37,700 nucleotides of DNA from a virus. Its lineage: Duplodnaviria; Heunggongvirae; Uroviricota; Caudoviricetes. Position 1 is the stretch's first letter. The number at the start of each line of letters is the position of its first letter. The notes below the pieces were generated by a model. That model had not been told where the DNA came from, did no database searches, and saw only the letters and a program-made list of their open reading frames with translations. The DNA is taken from positions 1 to 37,700 of the IMG/VR virus record IMGVR_UViG_2541047736_000004; one strand, 5' to 3'. Of this stretch, positions 2,261 through 33,030 are shown piece after piece. The translations under genes were made by a program, and so were the position numbers.

Positions 2261-3061
2261 TTAAGCGGCGTCGGTGAATTCAAATAAAAAACCGGCTTGC
2301 GCCGGCTCTCTCATCTTTCTGTCTACCCATGCTGATATCGATGGCGGGTGCACCTTTTCAATAGCAGCGCGAAGTACAGCTGTGCGTGCCAGTTTGTCGG
2401 TAATCTCAGGAAATCGCTTCTCTGTCTTCGGTACGTTAACAGCAACATTAGTAGAATCCGCACTGGCGAACGGATACATACCAAGAACTCTCACGTCGAG
2501 CATTCGAAGACCATGAATTTTCACTTTCAAATTACGATTGATATAAAGCTCAGTGAAAACTTCATCCATTCTCTGTTCCCACCATTTAGAGCGTATGTGC
2601 CTGTGTGGTCCGCAGCATCCAATCGCCACCCATTCAAATTTGCTAGAAAGGCGTAAAAGACGTTCAATTGATTCGTCGGTATGCCAGACCGGAACCGCTT
2701 TTGATTTTAGCCAATCAGGAACCAACTCAATCTGCTCGTCGTTTTCTGCCTCTGTCCCTTCGATAACGTCAGGTATAAGAAACCATTCAATTCTGCTGAA
2801 CCACTTCCCAACAAAGTCGTAGAATTTTGCTCGTCTCTTACTCCAGTCTACCGGAGTGCCTTTCTTTAATGCTTTCATCCAGTCGCTAAAAGCGCCGTTA
2901 TCAAGGCGTATATCACAAGGGAACATGGCAATCTTTTTCATCTGCTCTGGTCTGGCAAATGAAACAAAAGCCCCACCATCACGGTAAAGGGCTTTAATCA
3001 GCATATCTGTAGGGGCATGCTCATCCCCCCATATTGGGCTGCCGTGAAAGTGGATGGTCAT
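2261..3061 (-). CDS. Hypothetical protein (266 aa); weak resemblance to tRNA-guanine transglycosylase (TGT/DpdA-like) catalytic motif
   Basis: Long ORF with AT-rich upstream region; contains LDNGAF resembling the TGT catalytic motif TDSGGFQ, plus a second Asp-containing segment (ADSTNV). Assignment is motif-level only. Confidence 0.3.
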   Translation of the reverse strand: MTIHFHGSPIWGDEHAPTDMLIKALYRDGGAFVSFARPEQMKKIAMFPCDIRLDNGAFSDWMKALKKGTPVDWSKRRAKFYDFVGKWFSRIEWFLIPDVIEGTEAENDEQIELVPDWLKSKAVPVWHTDESIERLLRLSSKFEWVAIGCCGPHRHIRSKWWEQRMDEVFTELYINRNLKVKIHGLRMLDVRVLGMYPFASADSTNVAVNVPKTEKRFPEITDKLARTAVLRAAIEKVHPPSISAWVDRKMREPAQAGFLFEFTDAA

Positions 3062-3225
3062 ATTATCCCCATATAAAAGAAATCCCCGCGAGTGCGAGGA
3101 TTGTTATTCATTGCCGATATTTACATTTATTTCGAATATCTTTACTGGGTAATCGCCAAAGTCATATGTTTTTTATTCTGTTTTATAAGCACTACTAAGT
3201 ACTGCTTATTACAAATAAGAAAAGG

Positions 3226-3257
3226 CTGAAAAAATATTTAAGGCCACAACTGTGGCC
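3226..3257 (-). terminator. Intrinsic terminator of the LprI-like gene
   Basis: Minus-strand hairpin GGCCAC-agtt-GTGGCC followed by TTAAATATTTTTTCAG, immediately after the stop at 3268. Confidence 0.6.
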
Positions 3258-3267
3258 CTAAATTTAC

Positions 3268-3966
3268 TTACGGCACTGCGTTAATCAGATTACAAATACC
3301 TCTTTTGGCAGGGTCTGAATTCAACTTCTGGAAATTGGCGTTCAACATAGCAGTGTGTAAGTGATTCTCAACCTCAAAGAATAGGTCGATTTTGCCCTCT
3401 TTGGCTGCATGTTTCTTCCAAACATTCACTTGGTCATCAGCAATACGACTGGCGCAAGTGAACAAGAACGAACTGCCTCTAGGAATGGATGTCGTGCTGT
3501 AATACTCACCATCTACTTCTACATATTTAGCTCGGAATGACTCTAAGGTTAGCTTATTGCCGTTCTTGACCGACTTAGCTTCTGCCTTACTTGTTTCTTC
3601 CTGCTCTTTAGAATGTTTCTGCGCCGACGTGGGTATGTCATTGGCCGCTGTTACGCTGACTGAACTCCCCAAACCTTTGAGGCCATTAATTTGGATAAGA
3701 TAAGCCAGCTCCAGAGCCTTATTATCAGTGAGTTTTCCACGCATATTTACCCACTGACGTTGAACCATTTTTAGGGTGTCTGCGTTCTCTGGGTTTCCTT
3801 TGAGGGCACTAGAATAGGCAGAGCTAAGCTGTTCGTCTAATTTTGACAGACGTTCGTTATCGCAGATTTTATGTTCGATTGCTGTCGAAGCCTTTTGGCA
3901 GTCAAAGCTGGCTGCAAATGCACCCGGCGATGCCACTAACAATGATGCCAGTAGGATATTTTTCAT
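3268..3966 (-). CDS. Secreted DUF1311 / lysozyme-inhibitor LprI-like protein (232 aa from MKNILL start)
   Basis: Signal peptide MKNILLASLLVASPGAFA followed by FDCQKA...ICDN...LDEQL, typical of the LprI N-terminal domain; GGAG RBS before the internal ATG at 3966; own terminator and AT-rich upstream region. Confidence 0.6.
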   Translation of the reverse strand: MKNILLASLLVASPGAFAASFDCQKASTAIEHKICDNERLSKLDEQLSSAYSSALKGNPENADTLKMVQRQWVNMRGKLTDNKALELAYLIQINGLKGLGSSVSVTAANDIPTSAQKHSKEQEETSKAEAKSVKNGNKLTLESFRAKYVEVDGEYYSTTSIPRGSSFLFTCASRIADDQVNVWKKHAAKEGKIDLFFEVENHLHTAMLNANFQKLNSDPAKRGICNLINAVP

Positions 3967-4096
3967 ATTCACTCCATAAATACAAAAGCGCATTACTATA
4001 GCACTTAACCGATCGCTTATCTCGCCCGTTCGTCATTCTTATCTAACCAGAACATGCGACTGCCACAGCACATGTCGAGGATTGCTGCATGTCCAG

Positions 4097-4645
4097 TCAC
4101 TGGTTGCCTCCTTTGCGAAGCTGGGCGGCTAACTCATCACATATGTGCGTCAAAGAGCAAAGTTTGATTGATGGATGTTCGCGCATCATCTCCACCCCCT
4201 GCGCCCGTACTTCAGCCAGGAAAGCATCGGTGGCTGGCATATTTCCTGTTGCCTTCATGGCCTCCAAAATAACCAGAACACCATCTCTCCCAATCTCCTC
4301 GCAGATAACCTCGGTGCTGTCGCCAACAACATCGCAGAATTCCTGAACTGCTTTACGAGCCAGCTCATTCTCCGCCGCCAGCGCCGAAAACTTCTCGTGT
4401 GCCAACTTAACAGCTGCATCAGCCTGCTTAATTGACTCAGTCGCTTTCTGGTGGTCTTCGGCCAGCCCTGCTAAATCAGCCTCCAGTTCGGCTAGGCGTT
4501 CATTTAATGCATCTCGTTCATCCAGTAGAGCCAGCACAACCTGAGGTGTGACTTTCATACGAAATGCCAGCAATTTTTGAGGTGTTGCTACTGTTTCAAT
4601 TGCTACTGCCGCCTCACGCAGTGCCTGAGAGTTAATTTCGCTCAC
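4097..4645 (-). CDS. Ead/Ea22-like coiled-coil phage protein (182 aa)
   Basis: N-terminus MSEINSQALREAA... and coiled-coil composition resemble the Ea22-like family of lambdoid early-left regions; start overlaps the TraR-like stop (ATGA). Confidence 0.55.
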   Translation of the reverse strand: MSEINSQALREAAVAIETVATPQKLLAFRMKVTPQVVLALLDERDALNERLAELEADLAGLAEDHQKATESIKQADAAVKLAHEKFSALAAENELARKAVQEFCDVVGDSTEVICEEIGRDGVLVILEAMKATGNMPATDAFLAEVRAQGVEMMREHPSIKLCSLTHICDELAAQLRKGGNQ

Positions 4646-4863
4646 TTCGAACCTCTCTGTTTACTGATAAGTTCCAGATCCTCCTGGCAACTTGCACAAG
4701 TCCGACAACCCTGAACGGCCAGGCGTCTTCGTTCATCTAGCGGATCGCCACACTCACAACAATGAGTGGCAGATATAGCCTGGTGGTTCAGGCGGCGCAT
4801 TTTTATTGCTGTGTTGCGCTGTAATTCTTCAATTTCTGATGCTGAATCAATGATGTCTGCCAT
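4642..4863 (-). CDS. TraR/DksA-family C4 zinc-finger protein (73 aa)
   Basis: Two Cys pairs (CCEC ... CRTCASC) at the C-terminus; size and position typical of phage TraR-like proteins. Confidence 0.7.
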   Translation of the reverse strand: MADIIDSASEIEELQRNTAIKMRRLNHQAISATHCCECGDPLDERRRLAVQGCRTCASCQEDLELISKQRGSK

Positions 4864-4911
4864 CTTTCATTAATCCCTGAATTGTTGGTTAATACGCTTG
4901 AGGGTGAATGC

Positions 4912-4939
4912 GAATAAGAAAAAAGGAGCCTGTAGCTCC
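4912..4939 (-). terminator. Intrinsic terminator downstream of the DGQHR gene
   Basis: Minus-strand hairpin GGAGC-tacag-GCTCC followed by TTTTTTCTTATTCG. Confidence 0.55.
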
Positions 4940-5016
4940 ATGATGATTTTGTTTTTCATGCTCACCGTTCCTTAAAGACGCCGTACAGCATGCTGATATG
5001 AGACAATGTTGATTCA

Positions 5017-6081
5017 TTAAGTTGTTTCCAGACTTCCTTTGGTAAAAGCTTGTATCAGTCTGTTTGCTGCTGCTTTCTGCGCTGCCACATTGGCAATAAC
5101 CGATAGTTTTTCCTGGCTGGCTTTCGTGCAGATCCCCGCCCAGTTATCCATCAGAAAAAAATCCTCTCTTTCTGCAGAGCTGGTAGTTGCACAGAGTTTT
5201 TCGATCATAGAAGTTATTTCTGCGATGGAATGATTAACCATCATCTGTTGAACCGCAAAACCGAAAGCGTTAATCATTACTCCATGGAACTGAATATAAT
5301 CGCGCTTGTACGTAGCGTGGTGTACACCATGTCGGATTGAGTCAATCTGAGTTAGTGTAATCCATGCCTCCCAGACAGATTCTATATATCCCATTTCAAG
5401 TTGTTGATTGCCGTTCCTAGCAAACTTTGACGTTGCATCAGTGAGTGCCTTGAAACTCACCCACATATTACTTTTTAATGGCACTACGTTGTGTTCAAAA
5501 TCGGTTATATCGGCAAATACAGTATGTTGGGTCAGGAAGGATATCATTCCCTGAGCAATATCATCCCGGCCGTTATACGCCATATTGATGGTCGCTGATG
5601 GCTTAGAAACGTTGTTATTTATGTCCGAAAAGAACTGCTGCCGGGTTTTTAGCGGCAGATTCATTGTAAGCATCATGGGAACCATGAGCGTTGATGGGGA
5701 ACTTCGGCAAAATATCTCAATGCCAGCTGCACGATGTTGGCCATCAAAAAGTTTTATTTCGGCGTCGAGGGGAATTCTGGCTATACCAACATTTGTGTTG
5801 CCAAACGGTACAAATTCTATATTCGAATCACAGTTACCTACGAGAGGGGGAATGATAAAAGGCTCATTTCTTGAGTCTGCGTTAGTGAGATAATTTAAAA
5901 ATTTTCGTACTCGATTTGGATTAATTTCTCGCTGAGAGCGTTCCAGTGTATGGCCGTAATTATCTGAAGCGAGGAAACGAGCCAGCGATCTTCCTGGTAT
6001 GGTAAGGAAGAGTGTAACAGTACCACCCTGTACACCTTGCGATGCCGGAAATTCGAATGAATGATTACCAACCTGACTCAT
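5017..6081 (-). CDS. DGQHR-domain protein (DndB/DpdB-like, 354 aa)
   Basis: Exact DGQHR motif in KLFDGQHRAAGIEIF; size fits DndB-like proteins; start codon overlaps the stop of the upstream small ORF. Confidence 0.7.
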   Translation of the reverse strand: MSQVGNHSFEFPASQGVQGGTVTLFLTIPGRSLARFLASDNYGHTLERSQREINPNRVRKFLNYLTNADSRNEPFIIPPLVGNCDSNIEFVPFGNTNVGIARIPLDAEIKLFDGQHRAAGIEIFCRSSPSTLMVPMMLTMNLPLKTRQQFFSDINNNVSKPSATINMAYNGRDDIAQGMISFLTQHTVFADITDFEHNVVPLKSNMWVSFKALTDATSKFARNGNQQLEMGYIESVWEAWITLTQIDSIRHGVHHATYKRDYIQFHGVMINAFGFAVQQMMVNHSIAEITSMIEKLCATTSSAEREDFFLMDNWAGICTKASQEKLSVIANVAAQKAAANRLIQAFTKGSLETT

Positions 6082-6236
6082 ATATCCTCCTGTTTATTAT
6101 TTATCTTCTCAGCCAGCCGCTGTGCTTTCAGTGGATTTCTGATAACAGAAAGGCCGGGAAATACCCAGCCTCGCTTTGTAATGGAGTAGACGAAAGTGAT
6201 CGCGCCTACCCGGATATTATCGTGAGGATGCGTCAT
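6078..6236 (-). CDS. Small lambda orf60a-like protein (52 aa), translationally coupled to exo and the DGQHR gene
   Basis: ORF not in the supplied track (under 60 aa); translated by hand as [52 protein letters not shown]; ATG overlaps the exo stop (ATGA) and its stop overlaps the DGQHR start. Confidence 0.45.
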
Positions 6237-6913
6237 CGCCATTGCTCCCCAAATACAAAACCAATTTCAGCCAGTGCCTCGTCCATTTTTTCGATGAACT
6301 CCGGCACCATCTCGTCAAAACTCGCCATGTACTTTTCATCCCGCTCAACCACGACATAATGCAGTCCTTCACGCTTCATACGCGGGTCATAGTTGGCAAA
6401 GTACCAGGCATCTTTTCGTGTCACCCACATGCTGTACTGCACCTGGGCCATGTAAGCCGACTTTATGGCCTCGAAACCACCGAGCCGGAACTTCATGAAA
6501 TCCCGGGAGGTAAACGGGCATTTCAGCTCAAGGCCATTGCCGTTACTGCATAAACCATCGGGAGAGCAGGCGGTGCGCATACTTTCGTCGCGATAGATGA
6601 TCGGGGATTCAGTAACATTCACGCCGGAAGTGAATTCAAACAGGGTTCTGGCGTCGTTCTCGTACTGTTTTCCCCAGGCCAGCGCCTTAGCATTAACTTC
6701 CGGAGCCACACCGGTGCAAACCTCAGCCAGCAGGGTGTGGAAGTAGGACATTTTCATGTCAGGCCACTTCTTTCCTGAGCGGGGCTTTGCTATCACGTTG
6801 TGAACTTCTGAAGCGGTGATGACGCCGAGCCGTAATTTGTGCCATGCATCATCCCCCTGTTCGACAGCTCTCACGTCGATCCCGGTACGCTGCAGGATAA
6901 TGTCCGGTGTCAT
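6233..6913 (-). CDS. exo: Lambda exonuclease (Red-alpha), 226 aa
   Basis: Near-identical to lambda Exo as recalled; overlaps bet stop. Confidence 0.95.
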
Positions 6914-7695
6914 GCTGCCACCTTCTGCTCAGTGGCTTTCTGTTTCAGGAATCCAAGAGCTTTCACTGCTTCGGCCTGTGTCAGTTCTGACGATGCGCGA
7001 ATGTCGCGGCGAAATATCTGGGAACAGAGCGGCAATAAGTCGTCATCCCATGTTTTATCCAGGGCGATCAGCAGAGTGTTAATCTCCTGCATGGTTTCAT
7101 CGTTAACCGGAGTGATGTCGCGTTCCGGCTGACGTTCTGCAGTGTATGCAGTATTTTCGACAATGCGCTCGGCTTCATCCTTGTCATAGATACCAGCAAA
7201 TCCGAAGGCCAGACGGGCACACTGAATCATGGCTTTATGCCGTAACATCCGTTTGGGATGCGACTGCCACGGCCCCGTGATTTCTCTGCCTTCGCGGGTT
7301 TTGAATGGTTCGCGGCGGCATTCATCCATCCACTCGGTGACGCAGATGGGATGATTGCGGTCCTTGCGGTAAATCCGGCATGTACAGGATTCATTGTCCT
7401 GCTCAAAGTCCATACCATCAAACTGCTGGTTTTCATTGATGATGCGGGACCAGCCATCAACGCCCACCACCGGAACAATGCCGTTCTGCTTATCAGGGAA
7501 GGCGTAAATTTCTTTCGTCCACGGATTAAGGCCGTACTGGTTGGCGACGATCAACAATGCGATGAACTGCGCATCGCTGGCATCACCTTTAAATGCCGTC
7601 TGGCGAAGAGTGGTGATCAGTTCCTGTGGGTCGACAGAATCCATGCCGACACGTTCAGCCAGCTTCCCAGCCAGCGTTGCGAGTGCTGTACTCAT
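6910..7695 (-). CDS. bet: Lambda Bet (Red-beta) single-strand annealing protein, 261 aa
   Basis: Near-identical to lambda Bet as recalled. Confidence 0.95.
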
Positions 7696-7700
7696 CCGTT

Positions 7701-7997
7701 TTATACCTCTGAATCAATATCAAACTGGTGGTGAGCAATGATTTCAACCATGTACCGGATGTGTTCTGCCATGCGCTCCTGAAACTCAACATCGTCATCA
7801 AACGCACGGGTAATGGCTTTTTTGCTGGCCCCGTGGCGTTGCAAATGATCGATGCATAGCGATTCAAACAGGTGCTGGGGCAGGCCTTTTTCCATGTCGT
7901 CTGCCAGTTCTGCCTCTTTCTCTTCACGGGCGATCTGCTGGTAGTGACGTGCCCAGCTCTGAGCCTCAAGACGATCCTGAATGTAATAAGCGTTCAT
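7701..7997 (-). CDS. gam: Gam (RecBCD inhibitor), 98-aa short form
   Basis: Matches lambda GamS ([21 protein letters not shown]...). Confidence 0.9.
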
Positions 7998-8748: not shown

Positions 8749-10174
8749 TAATGCCAGTCAGTTAAGCAACTGACTGGCTCTTTTTCGGGGCTGTGGGGTA
8801 TTTCCAGGGCCTCTCCTTTACCACTCTCGGGAAGGCCCTTTCCCTTCTTGTCGGTAATTTCACAAGTTGTCCCATACTTGCAAGATCGCGCATCAGCTCC
8901 GGTATACGTCCCGGTGAAGCGCCCTGCAATGTCATCAGCATTCTCATCACCATTCCGCATGATTCTGAGAAACTCAGTTGATTCGGCCAGTAACCTTTCA
9001 GATGTTCCGCCATTTTAATCATCTGATATCTCACCAGATTATAAGCCAGTAAGACACCCCACAGCTCTTGCTCCACAAGCTCCGGCTTTTTACTTCTCAG
9101 CGTCAGCCTGCTCCGTTGCATCGTCTGTTTTATCTCCCTGTATCCCAGTTCGATTTCCCAGCGATGACTGTACAGATCCCCCATTTCTCCTCCGGGGAAG
9201 CGCATGGCGTCCGTCATCGACGTCAGCAGATGGCAGACTTTTCCTTTGCGCGTCACGGTCAGCAGGCGGGCAGTCACTTCATTTCCCAGTCCCGGCCACT
9301 TTTTTCGTGCCTGCGGGCTGGTTTTCAGCTTCACCAGATGATCGCCTTTACCCAGTTTTCTGATCTCTTCATATTGCGCTCCCTTTCTGAGAGGTATCAT
9401 CCAGTGGCGGTGTTCTCCCGCCAGGCTCCAGGCATTTAACAGTCCCAGTGAGTAATAACCTTTATCCATTAACGTCAGAGTGTTATCGCCGGTTTGTTCT
9501 ATAAGTTGCTCAGCAAGCTCATTTTCGCTGTTCTTCATCGTGCCGAAGGCTGCAGCCGTCAGCAGATGGCTGGTCAGTTCCATCTGGCAGACCATTTTGA
9601 CCTGCGGGTAGAGCGCCGGGTTCCCGGCATGTGTCTGGCGGGGGAAGGCTGCATCGTTCTCTGGTGTATCCGGTGTGCGCCAGAACACACCATCGATGGC
9701 CAGCAGGGTCAGGCCGCACCAGTGCGGATGCGGCGTGGCGTTATGCCAGAGCTGCGCTGTTTTCGTGAACACGCGGCGGACAGCCTCACTTCCCAGGCGC
9801 TGGCGGGCCTGAATAACGGCACTGGGGGCAACGAAGGGGCGATTGCCCGGCAGCATGATGTCCAGGCGATTCACAATCTGGTGAAGAGGTTCTTTACGCT
9901 CAAGCGCCATGCCAACAATACACCAGACCATCATTTCGAGGGGAAGACGGCGCTTGCGTAGCGTTACAGTACCTGATTCGGCAAGGCAACGAGAGATGAG
10001 TTCGGGGTCGAGGTAATCCCCCAGAGAAGTCAGTGGGTTACGCAGAGAATCGTAACGGGATACCAGATCAAGAGCCTGTCCAATGTGCATAAAAAAATCC
10101 GGAAACAAGTGAGCGTTTCCGGATTCTTACACAGCCACTGGATCGGTCAACTGATCCTTAACTGATCGGCATTA
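8749..10174 (-). mobile_element. Insertion sequence IS4, complete (1426 bp)
   Basis: Terminal inverted repeats TAATGCCAGTCAG... and ...CTGATCGGCATTA; encodes the IS4 transposase; flanked by a 12-bp duplication. Confidence 0.95.
8762..10090 (-). CDS. insG: IS4 transposase (442 aa from MHIGQALDL start)
   Basis: Recognised as the IS4 transposase (DDE family); the supplied ORF carries a 6-codon upstream extension. Confidence 0.9.
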
Positions 10175-20444: not shown

Positions 20445-21527
20445 TTAGAACTGGTAAACCATACCTACAGCAACGATATCATCGGTAGCAACGCCAGATG
20501 CTTTCGTGAAATCGCTCTTATCAATCAGGTTGATTTTGTAATCAACAAAAGTGGACATATTTTTGTTGAAGTAATAGGTTGCACCTACATCAATATATTC
20601 AACCAGGTCCTGATCACCCCACGCACCCAAGTCTTTTCCTTTAGATTGCAGGTAAGCAACGGACGGACGCAGACCGAAGTCGAACTGATATTGTGCAACT
20701 ACTTCGAAGTTTTGTGCTTTGTTGGCAATATGGTTATTACCAAAAACAGTCATGTTCTGGGTTTCAGAATAGGTGGTAGCCAGATAGATGTTGTTCGCAT
20801 CATATTTCAGACCAGCTGCCCATACTTCAGCATTTTGACCAGATGCATTCAGGCTGTTGTTACCGTAGATAACCTGATTATTAGTGCGGTCAGATTTAGC
20901 ATAGGTTGCACCTACACCGAATCCTTCATACTCATAAGTAGTGGAGAAACCGAAACCATCACCATTAGCTTCAGTTACGTCAGTGCGGTCATTTTTACCC
21001 TGATACTGAGCAGCAAAGTTCAGACCATCAACCAGACCAAAGAAGTCGTTGTTACGATAAGTTGCAACACCAGTGGTGCGACCAGTCATGAACACATCTG
21101 TTTGGGTCCAGGTATCGCCACCGAATTCTGGCAGAACGTCAGTCCACGCACCGATGTCGTATGCTACACCGTAGTTACGGCCGTAATCGATTGAGCCGTA
21201 GTCACCGAATTTCAGGCCTGCAAATGCAAGACGGGTTTTGTCTTTGGAGGAACCTTGAGATTCAGCGCGGTTGCCTTTGAATTCATATTCCCACTGACCG
21301 AAACCAGTCAGTTGATCGTTGATTTGGGTTTCACCTTTGAAGCCAAGACGGGCATAAGTAGTATCACCATCATCTGCATCATTAGAGGAGAAGTAGTGCT
21401 TAGCATTAACTTTCCCGTACAGATCCAGCTTGTTACTGTCTTTATTATAAATTTCAGCTGCCTGAGCAGACATCGCCATCAGTACTGATGCAGCTACAGC
21501 AGAAATTGCCACTGTTAATTTTTTCAT
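20445..21527 (-). CDS. nmpC: Outer-membrane porin of the OmpC/OmpF family (360 aa), prophage moron
   Basis: Signal peptide plus typical porin beta-barrel sequence ending in F; recognised as NmpC of DLP12-type prophages; antisense to the late operon. Confidence 0.9.
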
Positions 21528-30217: not shown

Positions 30218-31243
30218 ATGTCTGTATATACAACTGCAGAATTACTGGCATCGACCCAGCATCACTTTAAGTTCGATCCGCTGTTTCTGCGCCTGTTTTT
30301 CCGTGAAACCTATCCTTTCACCACGGAGAAAGTCTATCTCTCACAAATTCCGGGACTGGTAAACATGGCGCTGTACGTTTCGCCGATTGTTTCCGGTGAG
30401 GTTATCCGATCCCGTGGCGGCTCCACCTCTGAATTTACGCCGGGTTATGTCAAACCCAAGCATGAGGTGAATCCGCAGATGACCCTGCGTCGCCTGCCGG
30501 ATGAAGATCCGCAGAACCTGGCTGACCCGGCTTACCGTCGTCGCCGTATTATTCGGCAGAATATGCTGGATGAAAATCTGGCGATTGCCCAGGTCGAAGA
30601 GATGCAGGCAGTTTCTGCCGTGCTTAAGGGCAAATACACCATGACCGGTGAAGCCTTCGATCCGGTTGAGGTGGATATGGGCCGCAGTGAGGCGAATAAC
30701 ATCACGCAGTCCGGCGGCACGGAGTGGAGCAAGCGTGACAAGTCCACGTATGACCCGACCGACGATATCGAAGCCTACGCGCTGAACGCCAGCGGCGTGG
30801 TGAATATCATCGTGTTTGACCCGAAAGGCTGGGCGCTGTTCCGTTCCTTCAAAGCCGTCAAGGAGAAGCTGGATACCCGTCGCGGCTCTCATTCCGAACT
30901 GGAGACAGCGGTAAAAGACTTGGGCAAAGCGGTGTCTTATAAGGGAATGTATGGCGATGTGGCCATCGTCGTGTATTCCGGGCAGTACGTGGAAAACGGT
31001 GTCAAAAAGAACTTCCTGCCGGACAACACGATGGTGCTGGGGAACACTCAGGCACGCGGTCTGCGCACCTATGGCTGCATTCAGGATGCGGACGCACAGC
31101 GCGAAGGCATTAACGCCTCTGCCCGTTACCCGAAAAACTGGGTGACCACCGGCGATCCGGCGCGTGAGTTCACCATGATTCAGTCAGCACCGCTGATGCT
31201 GCTGGCTGACCCTGATGAGTTCGTGTCCGTACAACTGGCGTAA
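30218..31243 (+). CDS. E: Major capsid protein E (341 aa)
   Basis: Matches lambda gpE as recalled. Confidence 0.95.
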   Translation: MSVYTTAELLASTQHHFKFDPLFLRLFFRETYPFTTEKVYLSQIPGLVNMALYVSPIVSGEVIRSRGGSTSEFTPGYVKPKHEVNPQMTLRRLPDEDPQNLADPAYRRRRIIRQNMLDENLAIAQVEEMQAVSAVLKGKYTMTGEAFDPVEVDMGRSEANNITQSGGTEWSKRDKSTYDPTDDIEAYALNASGVVNIIVFDPKGWALFRSFKAVKEKLDTRRGSHSELETAVKDLGKAVSYKGMYGDVAIVVYSGQYVENGVKKNFLPDNTMVLGNTQARGLRTYGCIQDADAQREGINASARYPKNWVTTGDPAREFTMIQSAPLMLLADPDEFVSVQLA

Positions 31244-31284
31244 TCATGGCCCTTCGGGGCCATTGTTTCTCTGTGGAGGGGTTC

Positions 31285-31683
31285 ATGACGAAAGATGAAC
31301 TGATTGCCCGTCTCCGTTCGCTGGGTGAACAACTGAACCGTGATGTCAGCCTGACGGGGACGAAAGAAGAACTGGCGCTCCGTGTGGCAGAGCTGGAAGA
31401 GGAGCTTGATGACACGGATGACGCTGCCGGTCAGGATACATCTGTCAACCCGGAAAATGCGCTGACCGGACATGAAAATGAGGTGGTATCAGCGCAGCCG
31501 GATACCGTGATTCAGGATACGGCTGCTCTGGTCACGGTCGTGGCACTGGTGACGCTGCATACCGATGCACTTCACGCCACGCGGGATGAACCTGTGGCAT
31601 TTGCGCTGCCGGGAACGGCGTTTCGTGTCTCTGCCGGTATGGCAGCCGAAATGACAGAACGTGGCCTGGCCAGAATGCAATAA
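31285..31683 (+). CDS. FI: DNA packaging protein FI (132 aa from MTKDELIARL)
   Basis: Matches lambda FI as recalled. Confidence 0.9.
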   Translation: MTKDELIARLRSLGEQLNRDVSLTGTKEELALRVAELEEELDDTDDAAGQDTSVNPENALTGHENEVVSAQPDTVIQDTAALVTVVALVTLHTDALHATRDEPVAFALPGTAFRVSAGMAAEMTERGLARMQ

Positions 31684-31694
31684 CGGGAGGCGCT

Positions 31695-32048
31695 GTGGCT
31701 GATTTCGATAACCTGTTCGATGCTGCCATTGCCCGCGCCGATGAAACGATACGCGGGTACATGGGAACGTCAGCCACCATGACATCCGGTGAGCAGTCCG
31801 GCGCAGTAATACGTGGTGTTTTTGATGACCCTGAAAATATCAGCTATGCCGGACAGGGCGTGCGCGTTGAAGGCTCCAGCCCGTCCCTGTTTGTCCGGAC
31901 TGATGATGTGCGGCAACTGCGGCGTGGAGACACGCTGACCATCGGTGAGGAAAACTTCTGGATAGACCGGATTTCGCCGGATGATGGCGGAAGCTGTCAT
32001 CTCTGGCTTGGGCGGGGCGTACCGCCTGCCGTTAACCGTCGCCGCTGA
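31695..32048 (+). CDS. FII: Head-tail connector FII (117 aa)
   Basis: Matches lambda FII as recalled. Confidence 0.9.
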   Translation: MADFDNLFDAAIARADETIRGYMGTSATMTSGEQSGAVIRGVFDDPENISYAGQGVRVEGSSPSLFVRTDDVRQLRRGDTLTIGEENFWIDRISPDDGGSCHLWLGRGVPPAVNRRR

Positions 32049-32059
32049 AAGGGGGATGT

Positions 32060-32638
32060 ATGGCCATAAAAGGTCTTGAGCAGGCCGTTGAAAACCTCAG
32101 CCGTATCAGCAGAACGGCGGTGCCCGGTGCCGCCGCAATGGCCATTAACCGCGTTGCTTCATCCGCGATATCGCAGTCGGCGTCACAGGTTGCCCGTGAG
32201 ACAAAGGTACGCCGGAAACTGGTAAAGGAAAGGGCCAGGCTGAAAAGGGCCACGGTCAAAAATCCGCAGGCCAGAATCAAGGTTAACCGGGGGGATTTGC
32301 CCGTAATAAAGCTGGGTAACGCGCGGATTGTCCTGTCCCGACGCAGGCGTCGTAAAAAGGGGCAGCGTTCAGCCCTGAAAGGTGGCGGCAGCGTGCTTGT
32401 GGTGGGAAACCGTCGTATTCCCGGCGCGTTTATTCAGCAACTGAAAAATGGCCGCTGGCATGTCATGCAGCGTGTGGCTGGGAAAAACCGTTACCCCATT
32501 GATGTGGTGAAAATCCCGATGGCGGTGCCGCTGACCACGGCGTTTAAACAGAATATTGAGCGGATACGGCGTGAGCGTCTTCCGAAAGAGCTGGGCTATG
32601 CGCTGCAGCATCAACTGAGGATGGTAATAAAGCGATGA
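32060..32638 (+). CDS. Z: Tail completion protein Z (192 aa)
   Basis: Matches lambda gpZ as recalled. Confidence 0.9.
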   Translation: MAIKGLEQAVENLSRISRTAVPGAAAMAINRVASSAISQSASQVARETKVRRKLVKERARLKRATVKNPQARIKVNRGDLPVIKLGNARIVLSRRRRRKKGQRSALKGGGSVLVVGNRRIPGAFIQQLKNGRWHVMQRVAGKNRYPIDVVKIPMAVPLTTAFKQNIERIRRERLPKELGYALQHQLRMVIKR

Positions 32639-33030
32639 AACATACTGAACTCCGTGCAGCCATACTGGATGCACTGGAGAAGCATGACACCGGGGCGACG
32701 TTTTTTGATGGTCGCCCCGCTGTTTTTGATGAGGCGGATTTTCCGGCAGTTGCCGTTTATCTCACCGGCGCTGAATACACGGGCGAAGAGCTGGACAGCG
32801 ATACCTGGCAGGCGGAGCTGCATATCGAAGTTTTCCTGCCTGCTCAGGTGCCGGATTCAGAGCTGGATGCGTGGATGGAGTCCCGGATTTATCCGGTGAT
32901 GAGCGATATCCCGGCACTGTCAGATTTGATCACCAGTATGGTGGCCAGTGGCTATGACTACCGGCGCGACGATGATGCGGGCCTGTGGAGTTCTGCCGAT
33001 CTGACTTATGTCATTACCTATGAAATGTGA
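32635..33030 (+). CDS. U: Tail terminator protein U (131 aa)
   Basis: Matches lambda gpU as recalled. Confidence 0.9.

Follow-up and report, generated by a model that had tools for sequence, protein, structure and literature searches.

To our knowledge, proteins of the DGQHR/DndB type have been known only as components of the Dnd systems of hosts, and DpdB, a cousin with the motif DGQQR, only as a component of Dpd systems. DndB is a homodimer that represses the operon to which it belongs, including dndCDE, and its gene stands first there, ahead of the modification genes (PMC4507180). DpdB of S. Montevideo carries the motif DGQQR, and the DpdB ATPase is required for base exchange by DpdA (PMC10164549). 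A DndB-like protein with a C-helix (KHCAKIVDYLSR), a C-loop (EFFLP) and a Box II (GQHRVEA) binds both ATP and GTP, and fusions of a ParB fold to a methyltransferase (MTase) are enriched in prophages, where an anti-defence role has been proposed for them (PMC12704722).

The window analyzed here is the whole 37,700-nt stretch of a Caudoviricetes virus (IMG/VR record IMGVR_UViG_2541047736_000004). It is a lambda-like prophage and encodes a DGQHR protein in its leftward early operon. Comparison of this locus with its relatives reveals a conserved orphan DGQHR branch that lives on mobile elements and is repeatedly wired to orphan DNA MTases; new in this respect are the MTases that follow DGQHR genes and the plasmid relatives in leading regions, one of them with an IncN CUP early promoter.

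Identity and conservation of the DGQHR protein

The gene occupies positions 5017 to 6081 on the minus strand and encodes a 354-aa protein carrying KLFDGQHRAAGIEIF, with the DGQHR codons at 5745-5731 (residues 113-117), which confirms both the open reading frame and the exact motif described in an earlier note on this DNA. The profile searches on which that note let its reading of the motif depend all match: the NCBIfam DGQHR-domain model TIGR03187 with 188.8 bits (cutoff 58.85, E = 1.5e-55), Pfam DndB PF14072 with 158.2 bits (cutoff 29.1, E = 3.8e-46) and the PADLOC DndB model with E = 4.3e-37. All motifs of the DGQHR domain are invariant in 23 relatives at 52-73% identity, and the gene is under purifying selection, with a dN/dS of approximately 0.085 (against the 73% clade) and 18 synonymous vs. 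7 non-synonymous changes within the E. coli clade. The DGQHR motif is no chance match, and the protein is a genuine DGQHR-domain member of the DndB superfamily, of an uncharacterized variant.

It is not DndB proper, since the DndB equivalog model TIGR03233 gives 106.9 bits against a cutoff of 328, the DndB operator TACGN10CGTA is absent from the whole window, and no dndCDE genes accompany it. Its identity to an annotated Salmonella DndB is approximately 25%. PAPS-reductase/DndC, DndD and DndE were found nowhere in the window, in agreement with the earlier statement that no DndA/C/D/E gene is adjacent, and DndC/D/E were also missing from the loci surveyed more widely (41 from IMG/VR, 41 at species level from genomes and 51 additional viral ones) and from the plasmids; they are likewise absent from the Pfam families of the ±2 neighbors (~40 species-level loci) and from annotated phage and plasmid contexts. 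A distant exception is the DGQHR relative of Pseudoalteromonas phage KB12-38, which has PAPS-reductase genes nearby. With DndB (e.g., that of S. enterica Cerro 87; TIGR03233/PF14072), the best-scoring characterized family, the protein shares the DGQHR domain with its exact motif, a length of about 355 aa and the ParB/sulfiredoxin fold, and many of its relatives are encoded upstream of genes for DNA-modifying enzymes, as dndB is. The relatives differ in their location, which is the early operon of a phage or the leading region of a plasmid rather than the vicinity of dndC/D/E, and in having SAM-dependent MTases as partner genes instead of a sulfur-insertion complex.

Fold and predicted nucleotide site

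Foldseek comparison with the PDB, the route to placement proposed earlier, assigns a ParB/sulfiredoxin-like fold to the N-terminal domain, the only part of the protein that was matched, whereas the helical C-terminal domain gave no informative structural match. PadC is the best structural match, as it is for DpdB (PMC10164549), and DUF262/GmrSD-type proteins are among the matches. Sequence searches of the PDB with the single protein and then with a family profile returned no significant match.

The conserved motifs of a nucleotide site (C-motif helix and loop, Box II arginine) are present in the protein. The segments NRVRKFLNYL, PFIIPPL and GQHRAAG, invariant in the family, match the C-helix, the C-loop and Box II, respectively, of the ATP/GTP-binding DndB-like protein and make up a predicted nucleotide site. 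No nuclease domain or motif was found, and the helical C-terminus has no HNH, DUF1524 or EHxxP-type match.

Genomic context in the window

The gene lies in a foreign cassette of ~1.08 kb (4998 to 6078, minus strand) in the exo-xis region, which replaces lambda 30748-31193, i.e., orf61 and orf63. By blastn, window positions 6079-7800 on the exo side correspond to lambda 31194-32915 (97%), and 4601-4997 on the other flank to lambda 30352-30747 (96%). The DGQHR gene has a GC content of 43.1% vs. approximately 52% for exo and bet. Its position right after exo in the leftward early operon is as the earlier note had it; what was called an insertion into the Red operon is better described as a cassette swap for orf61 and orf63 within a mosaic exo-xis accessory region. 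The lambda genes share this genomic slot with the DGQHR gene and have no sequence or fold relationship to it.

Upstream in the same operon are exo (6233 to 6913, minus strand; Pfam YqaJ 6e-30), which is 97% identical to that of lambda, and beyond it bet (6910-7695) and then gam (7701-7997; Gam 1.2e-63). Between exo and the cassette lies a small orf60a-like open reading frame (6078 to 6242, minus strand; Pfam DUF1317 4.4e-31, PHROG 1998) of 52-54 aa, the 52-aa form of which starts within the exo stop (ATGA, 6236-6233) and the 54-aa form at an upstream ATG at 6242. As read from the sequence, its stop overlaps the DGQHR start (ATGA, 6081-6078), so the previously described coupling to both neighbors holds. 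This small gene is part of the lambda-type backbone and as such was rejected as a universal partner of the DGQHR gene. The next gene downstream is of the TraR/DksA zinc-finger type (4642 to 4863, minus strand; zf-dskA_traR 2.9e-07, TIGR02419 8e-14, PHROG 54) and neighbors the DGQHR gene at practically every E. coli-clade locus.

An intrinsic terminator had been placed at 4912-4939. A consensus scan does recover a terminator-like hairpin with a T-run at 4915 to 4939 on the minus strand, downstream of the DGQHR gene, in which GGAGCTACAGGCTCC (a 6-bp stem with 4 GC pairs and a 3-nt loop) is followed by TTTTTTCTTA (4939-4925), but folding of the region is no better than that of shuffled sequence (z = 0.05). 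As the hairpin is a weak consensus match in the lambda-homologous backbone, we do not count it as a feature of the cassette. No promoter of the gene's own rises above chance within the long operon, and inverted repeats around the gene are unremarkable, with no notable flanking palindrome. The Red genes are separated from the immunity region by an IS4-family element, which makes expression of the DGQHR gene in the window uncertain. A search of the whole window for an MTase gave no match.

The DpdA-family neighbor

A separate cassette of the same leftward operon, located ~1.95 kb further downstream than the DGQHR gene, contains a gene for a 266-aa DpdA-family (TGT-like DNA transglycosylase) protein (2261 to 3061, minus strand; PHROG 887 “queuine tRNA-ribosyltransferase” 1.3e-102) of the gamma-proteobacterial “singleton DpdA” group. 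The protein shows 98.5% identity to its counterpart in HK106, 58% to gp032 of Salmonella phage 7-11 and 43% to gp38 of Pantoea phage MED16, and is thus a homolog of phage DpdAs with an experimental link to 7-deazaguanine in DNA; the DNA of phages 7-11 and MED16 carries dADG (PMC6884629, PMC8306585). The protein has no Pfam or NCBIfam TGT match, and a 27-sequence profile reached no PDB entry. The absence of adjacent Dpd genes stated in the earlier note therefore does not hold for the window, and the description of the DGQHR gene as an orphan applies to the family but not to the window itself. Over the IMG/VR, species-level and further viral loci and the plasmids taken together, DndC/D/E are missing and a DpdA gene occurs near the DGQHR gene at a single locus, 1 of the 41 from IMG/VR. 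Among E. coli genomes the DGQHR gene occurs in 284 and the DpdA allele of the window in 82, with a contiguous stretch from DpdA to DGQHR in 4.

The DGQHR motif had also been read as a signature common to DndB and DpdB, of which the DndB half is borne out by the superfamily profiles, whereas the published DpdB has DGQQR (PMC10164549), a form that belongs to the SspE/DUF262 branch. DpdB and the window protein are alike in being of the ParB/sulfiredoxin-fold NTPase type, in having a C-terminal domain that is helical and in lacking a nuclease motif, and the enzyme with which DpdB works has a family member in the operon of the DGQHR gene. They differ in motif and in linkage, which for the DGQHR gene is confined to the 4 of 284 genomes; in addition, no dpdC-K genes are present in the window, and its DpdA is of the phage singleton type, not bDpdA. 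At E ≤ 10, only DGQHR/DndB models of NCBIfam and PADLOC match the protein, the presence of a DpdB model in these libraries being unconfirmed. Judged by the published motif and the lack of a conserved dpdA adjacency, the protein does not appear to fit DpdB.

Relatives in phages and prophages

In temperate phages (lambda-like, Uetakevirus (SPN1S), Klebsiella and Vibrio), DGQHR relatives reside in the leftward early operon, a first-expressed operon in which the gene holds the exo-xis slot. At species-level loci, DNA MTases of five Pfam families account for 11 of 67 open reading frames at +1/+2 and for 1 of 63 at -1/-2, a directional bias (Fisher p = 0.0045) in neighbor counts that are not phylogenetically independent. 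The IMG/VR data replicate this behavior, with an MTase of the Dam (PF05869), MT-A70 or N6_N4 type at +1/+2 in 8 of 17 close phage lineages (95% clusters) and none upstream. The MTase gene often overlaps the DGQHR stop by 4 nt (ATGA), and the order of DGQHR gene then MTase recurs in Vibrio phage Va_PF430-3_p42. Salmonella phage SPN1S likewise has a DGQHR gene together with an MT-A70 MTase gene (SPN1S_0033/0032).

The clade of the window has no adjacent MTase, nor has about one in two of the close lineages or the majority of the distant ones; clustering of neighbors yielded no universal partner gene. With so many relatives lacking an MTase, the DGQHR protein must be able to act alone, or else the synteny may be mere clustering of accessory genes. 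The arrangement resembles the ParB-CTPase-fold/MTase fusions (PMC12704722) in combining the same superfold with MTases of the N6_N4, MT-A70 or other types. The fusions are single polypeptides with a canonical ParBc domain (PF02195), whereas the DGQHR/DndB branch is separately encoded, often without an MTase and otherwise with one as an adjacent, often overlapping gene.

Most E. coli copies lie in a decayed, e14-like prophage at icd in which bet is truncated and no early promoter region is evident in the annotation. The DGQHR gene is intact in this prophage, with an AAA ATPase gene and mcrC approximately 4-7 kb away.

Relatives on plasmids

Relatives of approximately 42% identity are found on 1,071 plasmids, of which 885 are conjugative, and lie in the leading region with ssb, klcA, ardB, ardR and psiA as neighbors. 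The gene order on an IncL/M plasmid is RadC...DGQHR...methyltransferase...KlcA...SSB, while on an IncN-like plasmid the DGQHR operon lies between mucAB and ardB-ardR and, by repeat analysis, shares the CUP repeat and promoter with ardB, ccgC and ccgD, whose CUP/ArdK regulon has been described (PMC5027574, PMC9723621). The ArdK-type operator TTGACA-N4-TTGACA had no match in the plasmid locus. Identity of the DGQHR protein with IncN ArdK was considered, given the place of the gene ahead of ardB, and rejected, since ArdK is a 102-aa KorA-family HTH protein (PMC9723621); it is also disfavored by the classic IncN plasmid N3, which runs from mucA straight to ardB (PMC3347995).

The likeness to ardB, ardR and klcA lies in a common neighborhood and regulon and is positional and regulatory only. 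The DGQHR gene, orf61/orf63, ardB, klcA and ardC are all non-essential and early-expressed, with no sequence or fold kinship. In common IncL-size plasmids of 63.6 kb, which we take to be of the pOXA-48 type, the DGQHR gene is split by IS1, and a plasmid of great success can thus do without it.

Proposed role in establishment

The reading we prefer, held tentatively and with rather less than even confidence, is that the DGQHR protein is an early NTP-binding ParB/sulfiredoxin-fold protein that helps incoming DNA escape restriction, probably together with DNA-modifying enzymes. Its location among the first-expressed genes and the MTase often found directly downstream suggest protection of newly arrived DNA from host restriction, and a role alongside a modification enzyme seems reasonable since both characterized relatives, DndB and DpdB, work with such enzymes. 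The protein would represent a stand-alone DndB-type branch of the ParB/sulfiredoxin NTPase fold that is specialized for mobile elements, and its gene would be transcribed with the earliest genes, in the leftward operon after exo in the prophage and from ArdK/CUP-type leading-region promoters on plasmids. The C-motif and the DGQHR motif (Box II), both invariant, would serve it to bind ATP or GTP, and it would also bind DNA as a dimer and help newly entered or newly replicated element DNA past host restriction. The most likely route would be cooperation with a DNA-modifying enzyme by loading, activating or tuning it, the partner being a phage adenine MTase in many relatives and possibly the DpdA transglycosylase or a host enzyme in the window mosaic. 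The earlier suggestion of a part in DNA modification or anti-restriction thus has the right direction, as indicated by the MTase synteny and the plasmid leading regions, while the effect itself is one that we infer.

A more specific form of this proposal, which we regard as speculative and rather unlikely, is that stand-alone DGQHR proteins are unrecognized establishment factors, acting on DNA as clamps or loaders gated by NTP, and that they recruit or activate whichever DNA-modifying enzyme is available, so that incoming DNA is modified fast enough to evade restriction. The enzymes recruited may be phage Dam, MT-A70 or N6_N4 MTases, DpdA, or host enzymes, and DndB and DpdB may be defence-system versions of the same principle. 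If the DGQHR branch does aid restriction evasion, it would be a new component of the anti-defence repertoire by which the host ranges of phages and of resistance plasmids are shaped, and there would be a functional rationale for the widespread association of ParB folds with MTases.

Alternative explanations

The kinship with DndB could instead reflect a transcription factor, i.e., a sequence-specific, NTP-modulated repressor or activator of accessory genes (e.g., the downstream MTase), phage genes or host genes, with phage or host targets that, like other exo-xis genes, influence the choice between lysis and lysogeny. Such a role would agree with DndB, the best-scoring characterized relative, which as a homodimer represses the operon that its gene heads (PMC4507180), with the order of DGQHR gene then MTase, which mirrors dndB then dndCDE, and with the modulation of phage development by the replaced lambda orf61 and orf63 (PMC6213356, PMC5575149). 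We nonetheless find it doubtful: neither TACGN10CGTA in the window nor a notable palindrome flanking the gene was found, the gene sits inside a long operon where a promoter of its own is not above chance, the 4-nt MTase overlaps imply co-translation and not control from a separate promoter, and solo copies have no obvious target gene. Very improbable, in our estimate, is the decoy or regulator of host Dnd (phosphorothioation) put forward in the earlier note, in which a phage DndB look-alike would mis-regulate dndBCDE or titrate Dnd proteins. With the identity to DndB at ~25%, the equivalog score far below its cutoff and the operator missing, this claim is unsupported, and repression of the modification genes alone would leave phage DNA open to DndFGH. 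As far as we know, moreover, the DGQHR family is widespread in hosts, most of them without Dnd. What speaks for a decoy is that DndB is the best characterized match and that phages are known to counter Dnd, though via an unrelated kinase (PMC12345140); the anti-Dnd protein in question, JSS1_004, was considered as a relative of the DGQHR protein and rejected, being of the T7 gp0.7 type (PMC12345140).

A prophage or plasmid defence or exclusion factor, an NTPase sensing foreign or modified DNA by analogy with the DUF262 domains of GmrSD, SspE and BrxU, would account for the structural similarity to DUF262/GmrSD-type proteins, and the decayed prophage of many E. coli genomes, with its intact DGQHR gene and the nearby AAA ATPase and mcrC genes, is consistent with it, although abundance in E. 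coli may be largely clonal, to judge by strain names. GmrSD, SspE and BrxU (motif DGQQR) have a related fold and nucleotide-site motif, but they are host defence effectors with a C-terminal DUF1524/HNH nuclease, whereas the DGQHR protein has no nuclease and is encoded in early operons of mobile elements. These operons (leftward early; ArdK/CUP) should be under repression once the element is established and active when it enters the cell or is induced, and the neighbors are anti-restriction genes, not defence genes, so that we consider a defence role improbable. A phage DpdAB-like pair, in which the DGQHR protein would be the ATPase partner of DpdA and boost insertion of host-made preQ0 (then dPreQ0/dADG), also strikes us as a slim prospect. 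Linkage of the two genes is as rare as the counts given above, each lies in a cassette with its own lambda-backbone junctions, and HK106, 7-11 and MED16, which have DpdA, are absent among the DGQHR matches; the motif of the published DpdB differs, and no DpdB model was matched in libraries whose content in this respect is unconfirmed. Phage DpdAs alone, moreover, insert preQ0 in E. coli (PMC6884629, PMC10516641). On the other side, both genes share one leftward operon, bacterial DpdA needs the ParB-fold ATPase DpdB (PMC10164549), and phages 7-11 and MED16 with their singleton DpdA modify just ~0.02-0.13% of G (PMC6884629, PMC8306585), a level at which a helper could matter. The window prophage, with genes for both a singleton DpdA and a DGQHR protein, is a rare natural test case for whether phage DpdAs can use a ParB-fold helper.

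Identity and Family Placement of the DGQHR Protein

The DGQHR gene, at 5017–6081 (−), encodes a 354-aa protein of the DndB superfamily with a ParB/Srx fold that contains KLFDGQHRAAGIEIF, the DGQHR codons lying at 5745–5731. The exact motif described in the earlier note is borne out by profile searches, in which the protein scored 188.8 bits with NCBIfam TIGR03187 (DGQHR domain; cutoff 58.85; E = 1.5e-55) and also matched Pfam DndB PF14072 (3.8e-46), PADLOC DndB (4.3e-37) and PHROG 7901 (function unknown, 7e-216); since all four match, a chance occurrence of the motif can be dismissed. The gene is real and under constraint, with a dN/dS of ~0.085 relative to a homologue of 73% identity and, within the E. 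coli clade, codon changes of which 18 are synonymous against 7 non-synonymous; one allele has an internal stop.

Its relatives form a coherent, Enterobacterales-wide clade of ~355 aa proteins (53–73% identity), all annotated solely as “DGQHR domain-containing protein” and sharing the invariant motifs RSQRExN..R..KF..YL, PFIIPxLxGNC, LFDGQHRA and RxQFFSDINNNxSKP. Only 586 representatives (50% clustering level) matched at E ≤ 1e-3 among 1.84 billion proteins. ATP and GTP binding has been demonstrated for a DndB-like protein with a Box II (GQHRVEA), a C-helix (KHCAKIVDYLSR) and a C-loop (EFFLP) (PMC12704722), and these three have counterparts in the family invariants GQHRAAG, NRVRKFLNYL and PFIIPPL. 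Because these motifs match, we infer on good grounds that the DGQHR protein would bind NTP.

Assignment as DndB proper was rejected, with a TIGR03233 score of 106.9 against a cutoff of 328, and an annotated Salmonella DndB is only ~25% identical. Unlike DndB proper, the gene has no dndCDE in any of its close contexts, and a pattern search found no copy of the DndB operator in the window. The suggestion that DGQHR also marks DpdB did not hold, as the DpdB of S. Montevideo has the motif DGQQR and resembles SspE/DUF262 (PMC10164549). No DpdB model matched in NCBIfam or PADLOC, either of which may hold none, even at E ≤ 10; judged by its motif, a DpdB identity does not fit.

Operon Position and Cassette Structure

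Upstream of the DGQHR gene lie gam (7701–7997), bet (6910–7695) and exo (6233–6913), and between exo and the gene is a DUF1317/orf60a-like ORF (6078–6242), which shares ATGA overlaps with the stop of exo and the start of the DGQHR gene, as first described. Comparison with lambda aligns 6079–7800 with lambda 31194–32915 (orf60a, exo, bet) at 97% and 4601–4997 with lambda 30352–30747 at 96%. Because the junctions are sharp and the intervening 1.08 kb (4998–6078) has a GC content of 43% vs. ~52% in the flanks, the cassette stands in place of lambda orf61 and orf63 in the exo-xis region. Insertion into the Red operon, as originally proposed, is better described as replacement by a foreign cassette. 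The exo-xis region is known to be a mosaic of non-essential early genes with modulating effects on phage development (orf61/orf63: PMC6213356, PMC5575149).

The terminator proposed to follow the gene is seen as a hairpin GGAGCTACAGGCTCC and T-run at 4939–4925, but it matches the consensus weakly and the regional fold is no better than that of shuffled sequence; it belongs to the lambda-type backbone, outside the cassette. The stretch 2261–6081 is a 100% match to E. coli strain 2024CK-00188. Between gam and the repressor gene, the leftward early region has taken in an IS4-family transposase gene (Nterm_IS4 and DDE_Tnp_1; 8762–10108, −), an element that may cut off early transcripts before they reach the Red, DGQHR and DpdA genes of this prophage. 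One more exo-xis accessory cassette, in the ea8.5-side slot that separates ea22 from the DpdA gene, is a gene (3268–3993, −; PHROG 4675) for a 241-aa LprI-domain protein that apparently begins with a signal sequence.

A DpdA-Family Gene in the Same Operon

The gene was initially described as an orphan with no Dpd gene adjacent, but a DpdA-family gene (2261–3061, −; 266 aa) shares its leftward operon 1.95 kb downstream. This ORF matches PHROG 887 “queuine tRNA-ribosyltransferase” (1.3e-102) and is 98.5% identical to a gene of phage HK106, 58% to gp032 of Salmonella phage 7-11 and 43% to gp38 of Pantoea phage MED16; searches of Pfam and NCBIfam gave no hit, and a 27-sequence profile found no relative in the PDB, so that its TGT fold is putative. 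The 7-11 and MED16 genes belong to the “singleton DpdA” group and come from phages that have dADG in their DNA and depend on host preQ0 (PMC6884629, PMC8306585). On the lambda-type backbone the cassette adjoins the ea8.5 slot (~lambda 29330), and a 460-aa homologue (P0275, 76% identical) is a DpdA-methyltransferase fusion with a phage Dam (PF05869) domain.

What stands of the orphan claim is that the pairing is a rare mosaic. Among 5,426 complete E. coli genomes the DGQHR gene is carried by 284 (≥99% identity) and the DpdA allele by 82, the contiguous stretch that spans both being present in only 4; a DpdA homologue lies near the gene in 1 of 41 IMG/VR loci (L013), and relative to lambda the two are separate cassettes. 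Most E. coli copies have just the TraR-DGQHR segment in common with the window. A sampled example from E. coli (L044, NZ_CP018965.1 4178537–4197950) lies in the remnant of an e14-like prophage at icd, with the order int-xis-DUF4222-TraR-DGQHR-DUF1317-exo-truncated bet. Its DGQHR gene has mcrC and an AAA ATPase gene within a few kb.

Methyltransferase Synteny and Plasmid Relatives

In phage contexts the gene is always at the distal end of the early-left operon, close to recombination genes: RecT, xis, DUF1317, DGQHR, methyltransferase (MTase; 4-nt overlap), int in SPN1S-type Uetakeviruses; RecT...PerC, DGQHR, MT-A70, DUF1382, int in a prophage at guaA; ParB-HTH, DGQHR, ..., dATP/dGTP pyrophosphohydrolase, exonuclease, int in Klebsiella prophages; and DGQHR, a 500-aa MTase, int in Vibrio phage Va_PF430-3_p42. 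In a census of one genome per species (41 loci, 30–100% identity), the two downstream ORFs included 11 DNA MTases of five Pfam families (MT-A70 ×5, Dam PF05869 ×3, D12, N6_N4, C5) and the two upstream ORFs 1 (Fisher p = 0.0045, for neighbor counts that are phylogenetically non-independent). Several loci have an ATGA overlap between the DGQHR stop and the MTase start. An IMG/VR replicate on a clade of 63–74% identity (51 loci, 17 clusters at 95% identity) had an MTase at the downstream positions in 8/17 clusters and upstream in 0/17, and all 6 representatives tested against Pfam were Dam, MT-A70 or N6_N4. The E. coli clade to which the window belongs is the solo form, with no MTase next to the gene, and none was found within the whole window.

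In the largest IMG/VR lineage (24 loci; L132:7065–7526) the DGQHR gene and a phage Dam gene are separated by a conserved ORF of 154 aa that lacks a Pfam match; this ORF immediately follows the DGQHR gene in L053 and L054 too, and could be a third component of a DGQHR-Dam module. In Pseudoalteromonas phage KB12-38 (L094, 48741–59688) a distant DndB-like gene (31% identity) has a C5 methyltransferase and two PAPS-reductase-like genes around it, perhaps forming a DndB/DndC-like modification module carried by the phage.

Relatives of ~42% identity occur on 1,071 plasmids, 885 of them conjugative, and a relative of 53% identity shares a conjugative-plasmid-like contig with genes for topoisomerase III, H-NS, TrbM and PilM. 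An IncL/M plasmid has the gene in its leading region (RadC...DGQHR...methyltransferase...KlcA...SSB). In 63.6-kb plasmids (H235–H250, e.g., NZ_CP068321.1 30197–31929), which we take to be of pOXA-48 size and type, the homologue is split by IS1 in many near-identical copies from Klebsiella, E. coli, Citrobacter and Enterobacter. The IncN-like plasmid NZ_CP116079.1 (L097:6149–8266) carries a 126-aa ORF with no Pfam match and a gene for a 425-aa DGQHR protein between mucAB and ardB-ardR, an operon missing from the classic IncN plasmid N3 (PMC3347995). In front of it is a repeat and promoter, GTACTTGTATTGACTTTAAGGGCGTAATCACCGATAATTAAA, shared with ardB, ccgD, ccgC and a korA/ardK-like gene, which places it in the ArdK-controlled CUP regulon, whose genes are expressed on entering a new host (PMC5027574, PMC9723621).

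Possible Roles of the DGQHR Protein

The best-supported reading, held tentatively and short of probable, is that the protein would be an NTP-binding, DNA-associated establishment factor that may aid restriction escape of newly entered element DNA, most likely by cooperating with DNA-modifying enzymes. It draws on the fact that both characterized relatives act alongside such enzymes, DndB regulating dndCDE (PMC4507180) and the DpdB ATPase enabling DpdA (PMC10164549), on the prophage enrichment of ParB-fold-MTase fusions (PMC12704722), on the early or leading-region location and on the directional MTase synteny. Against it stand the lack of an adjacent MTase in many lineages, the window's included, the non-independence of the neighbor counts, the decayed prophage setting of most E. 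coli copies (one context sampled) and the disruption by IS1, which shows that the gene is dispensable in successful 63.6-kb plasmids. The IS4-family element also leaves expression in the window uncertain, since it separates the immunity region from the Red genes.

A DndB-like transcription factor is unlikely but the foremost of the alternatives; the regulatory role of DndB suggests it, and the missing DndB operator argues against it. [quoted passage not shown] About as improbable is an NTPase for defence or exclusion, which structural similarity to DUF262/GmrSD-type proteins suggests and the early and leading-region location argues against. Least likely is an anti-Dnd decoy, which the DndB kinship would permit and the low identity to annotated DndB does not favor.

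Databases already list the family, under “DGQHR domain-containing protein” and as PHROG 7901, and our literature search found no paper on orphan DGQHR proteins of phages or plasmids. What is new is a DndB-superfamily predicted NTPase outside any Dnd/Dpd system, with a testable link to orphan methyltransferases and plasmid leading regions. For specialists, the noteworthy features are the mobile-element distribution and the MTase synteny, the mechanism being inferential.

Other Features of the Prophage

The window begins within an MFS permease gene (1–1248), presumably cscB, and a Xis/AlpA-like ORF lies at 1778–1978. The left end of the prophage appears to be without int, since there is no integrase gene between these two and no tRNA gene in the whole window. 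The prophage also includes a Gram-negative porin gene (Porin_1, 3e-153; 20445–21527, −), read from the opposite strand, that looks like an accessory (moron) gene.
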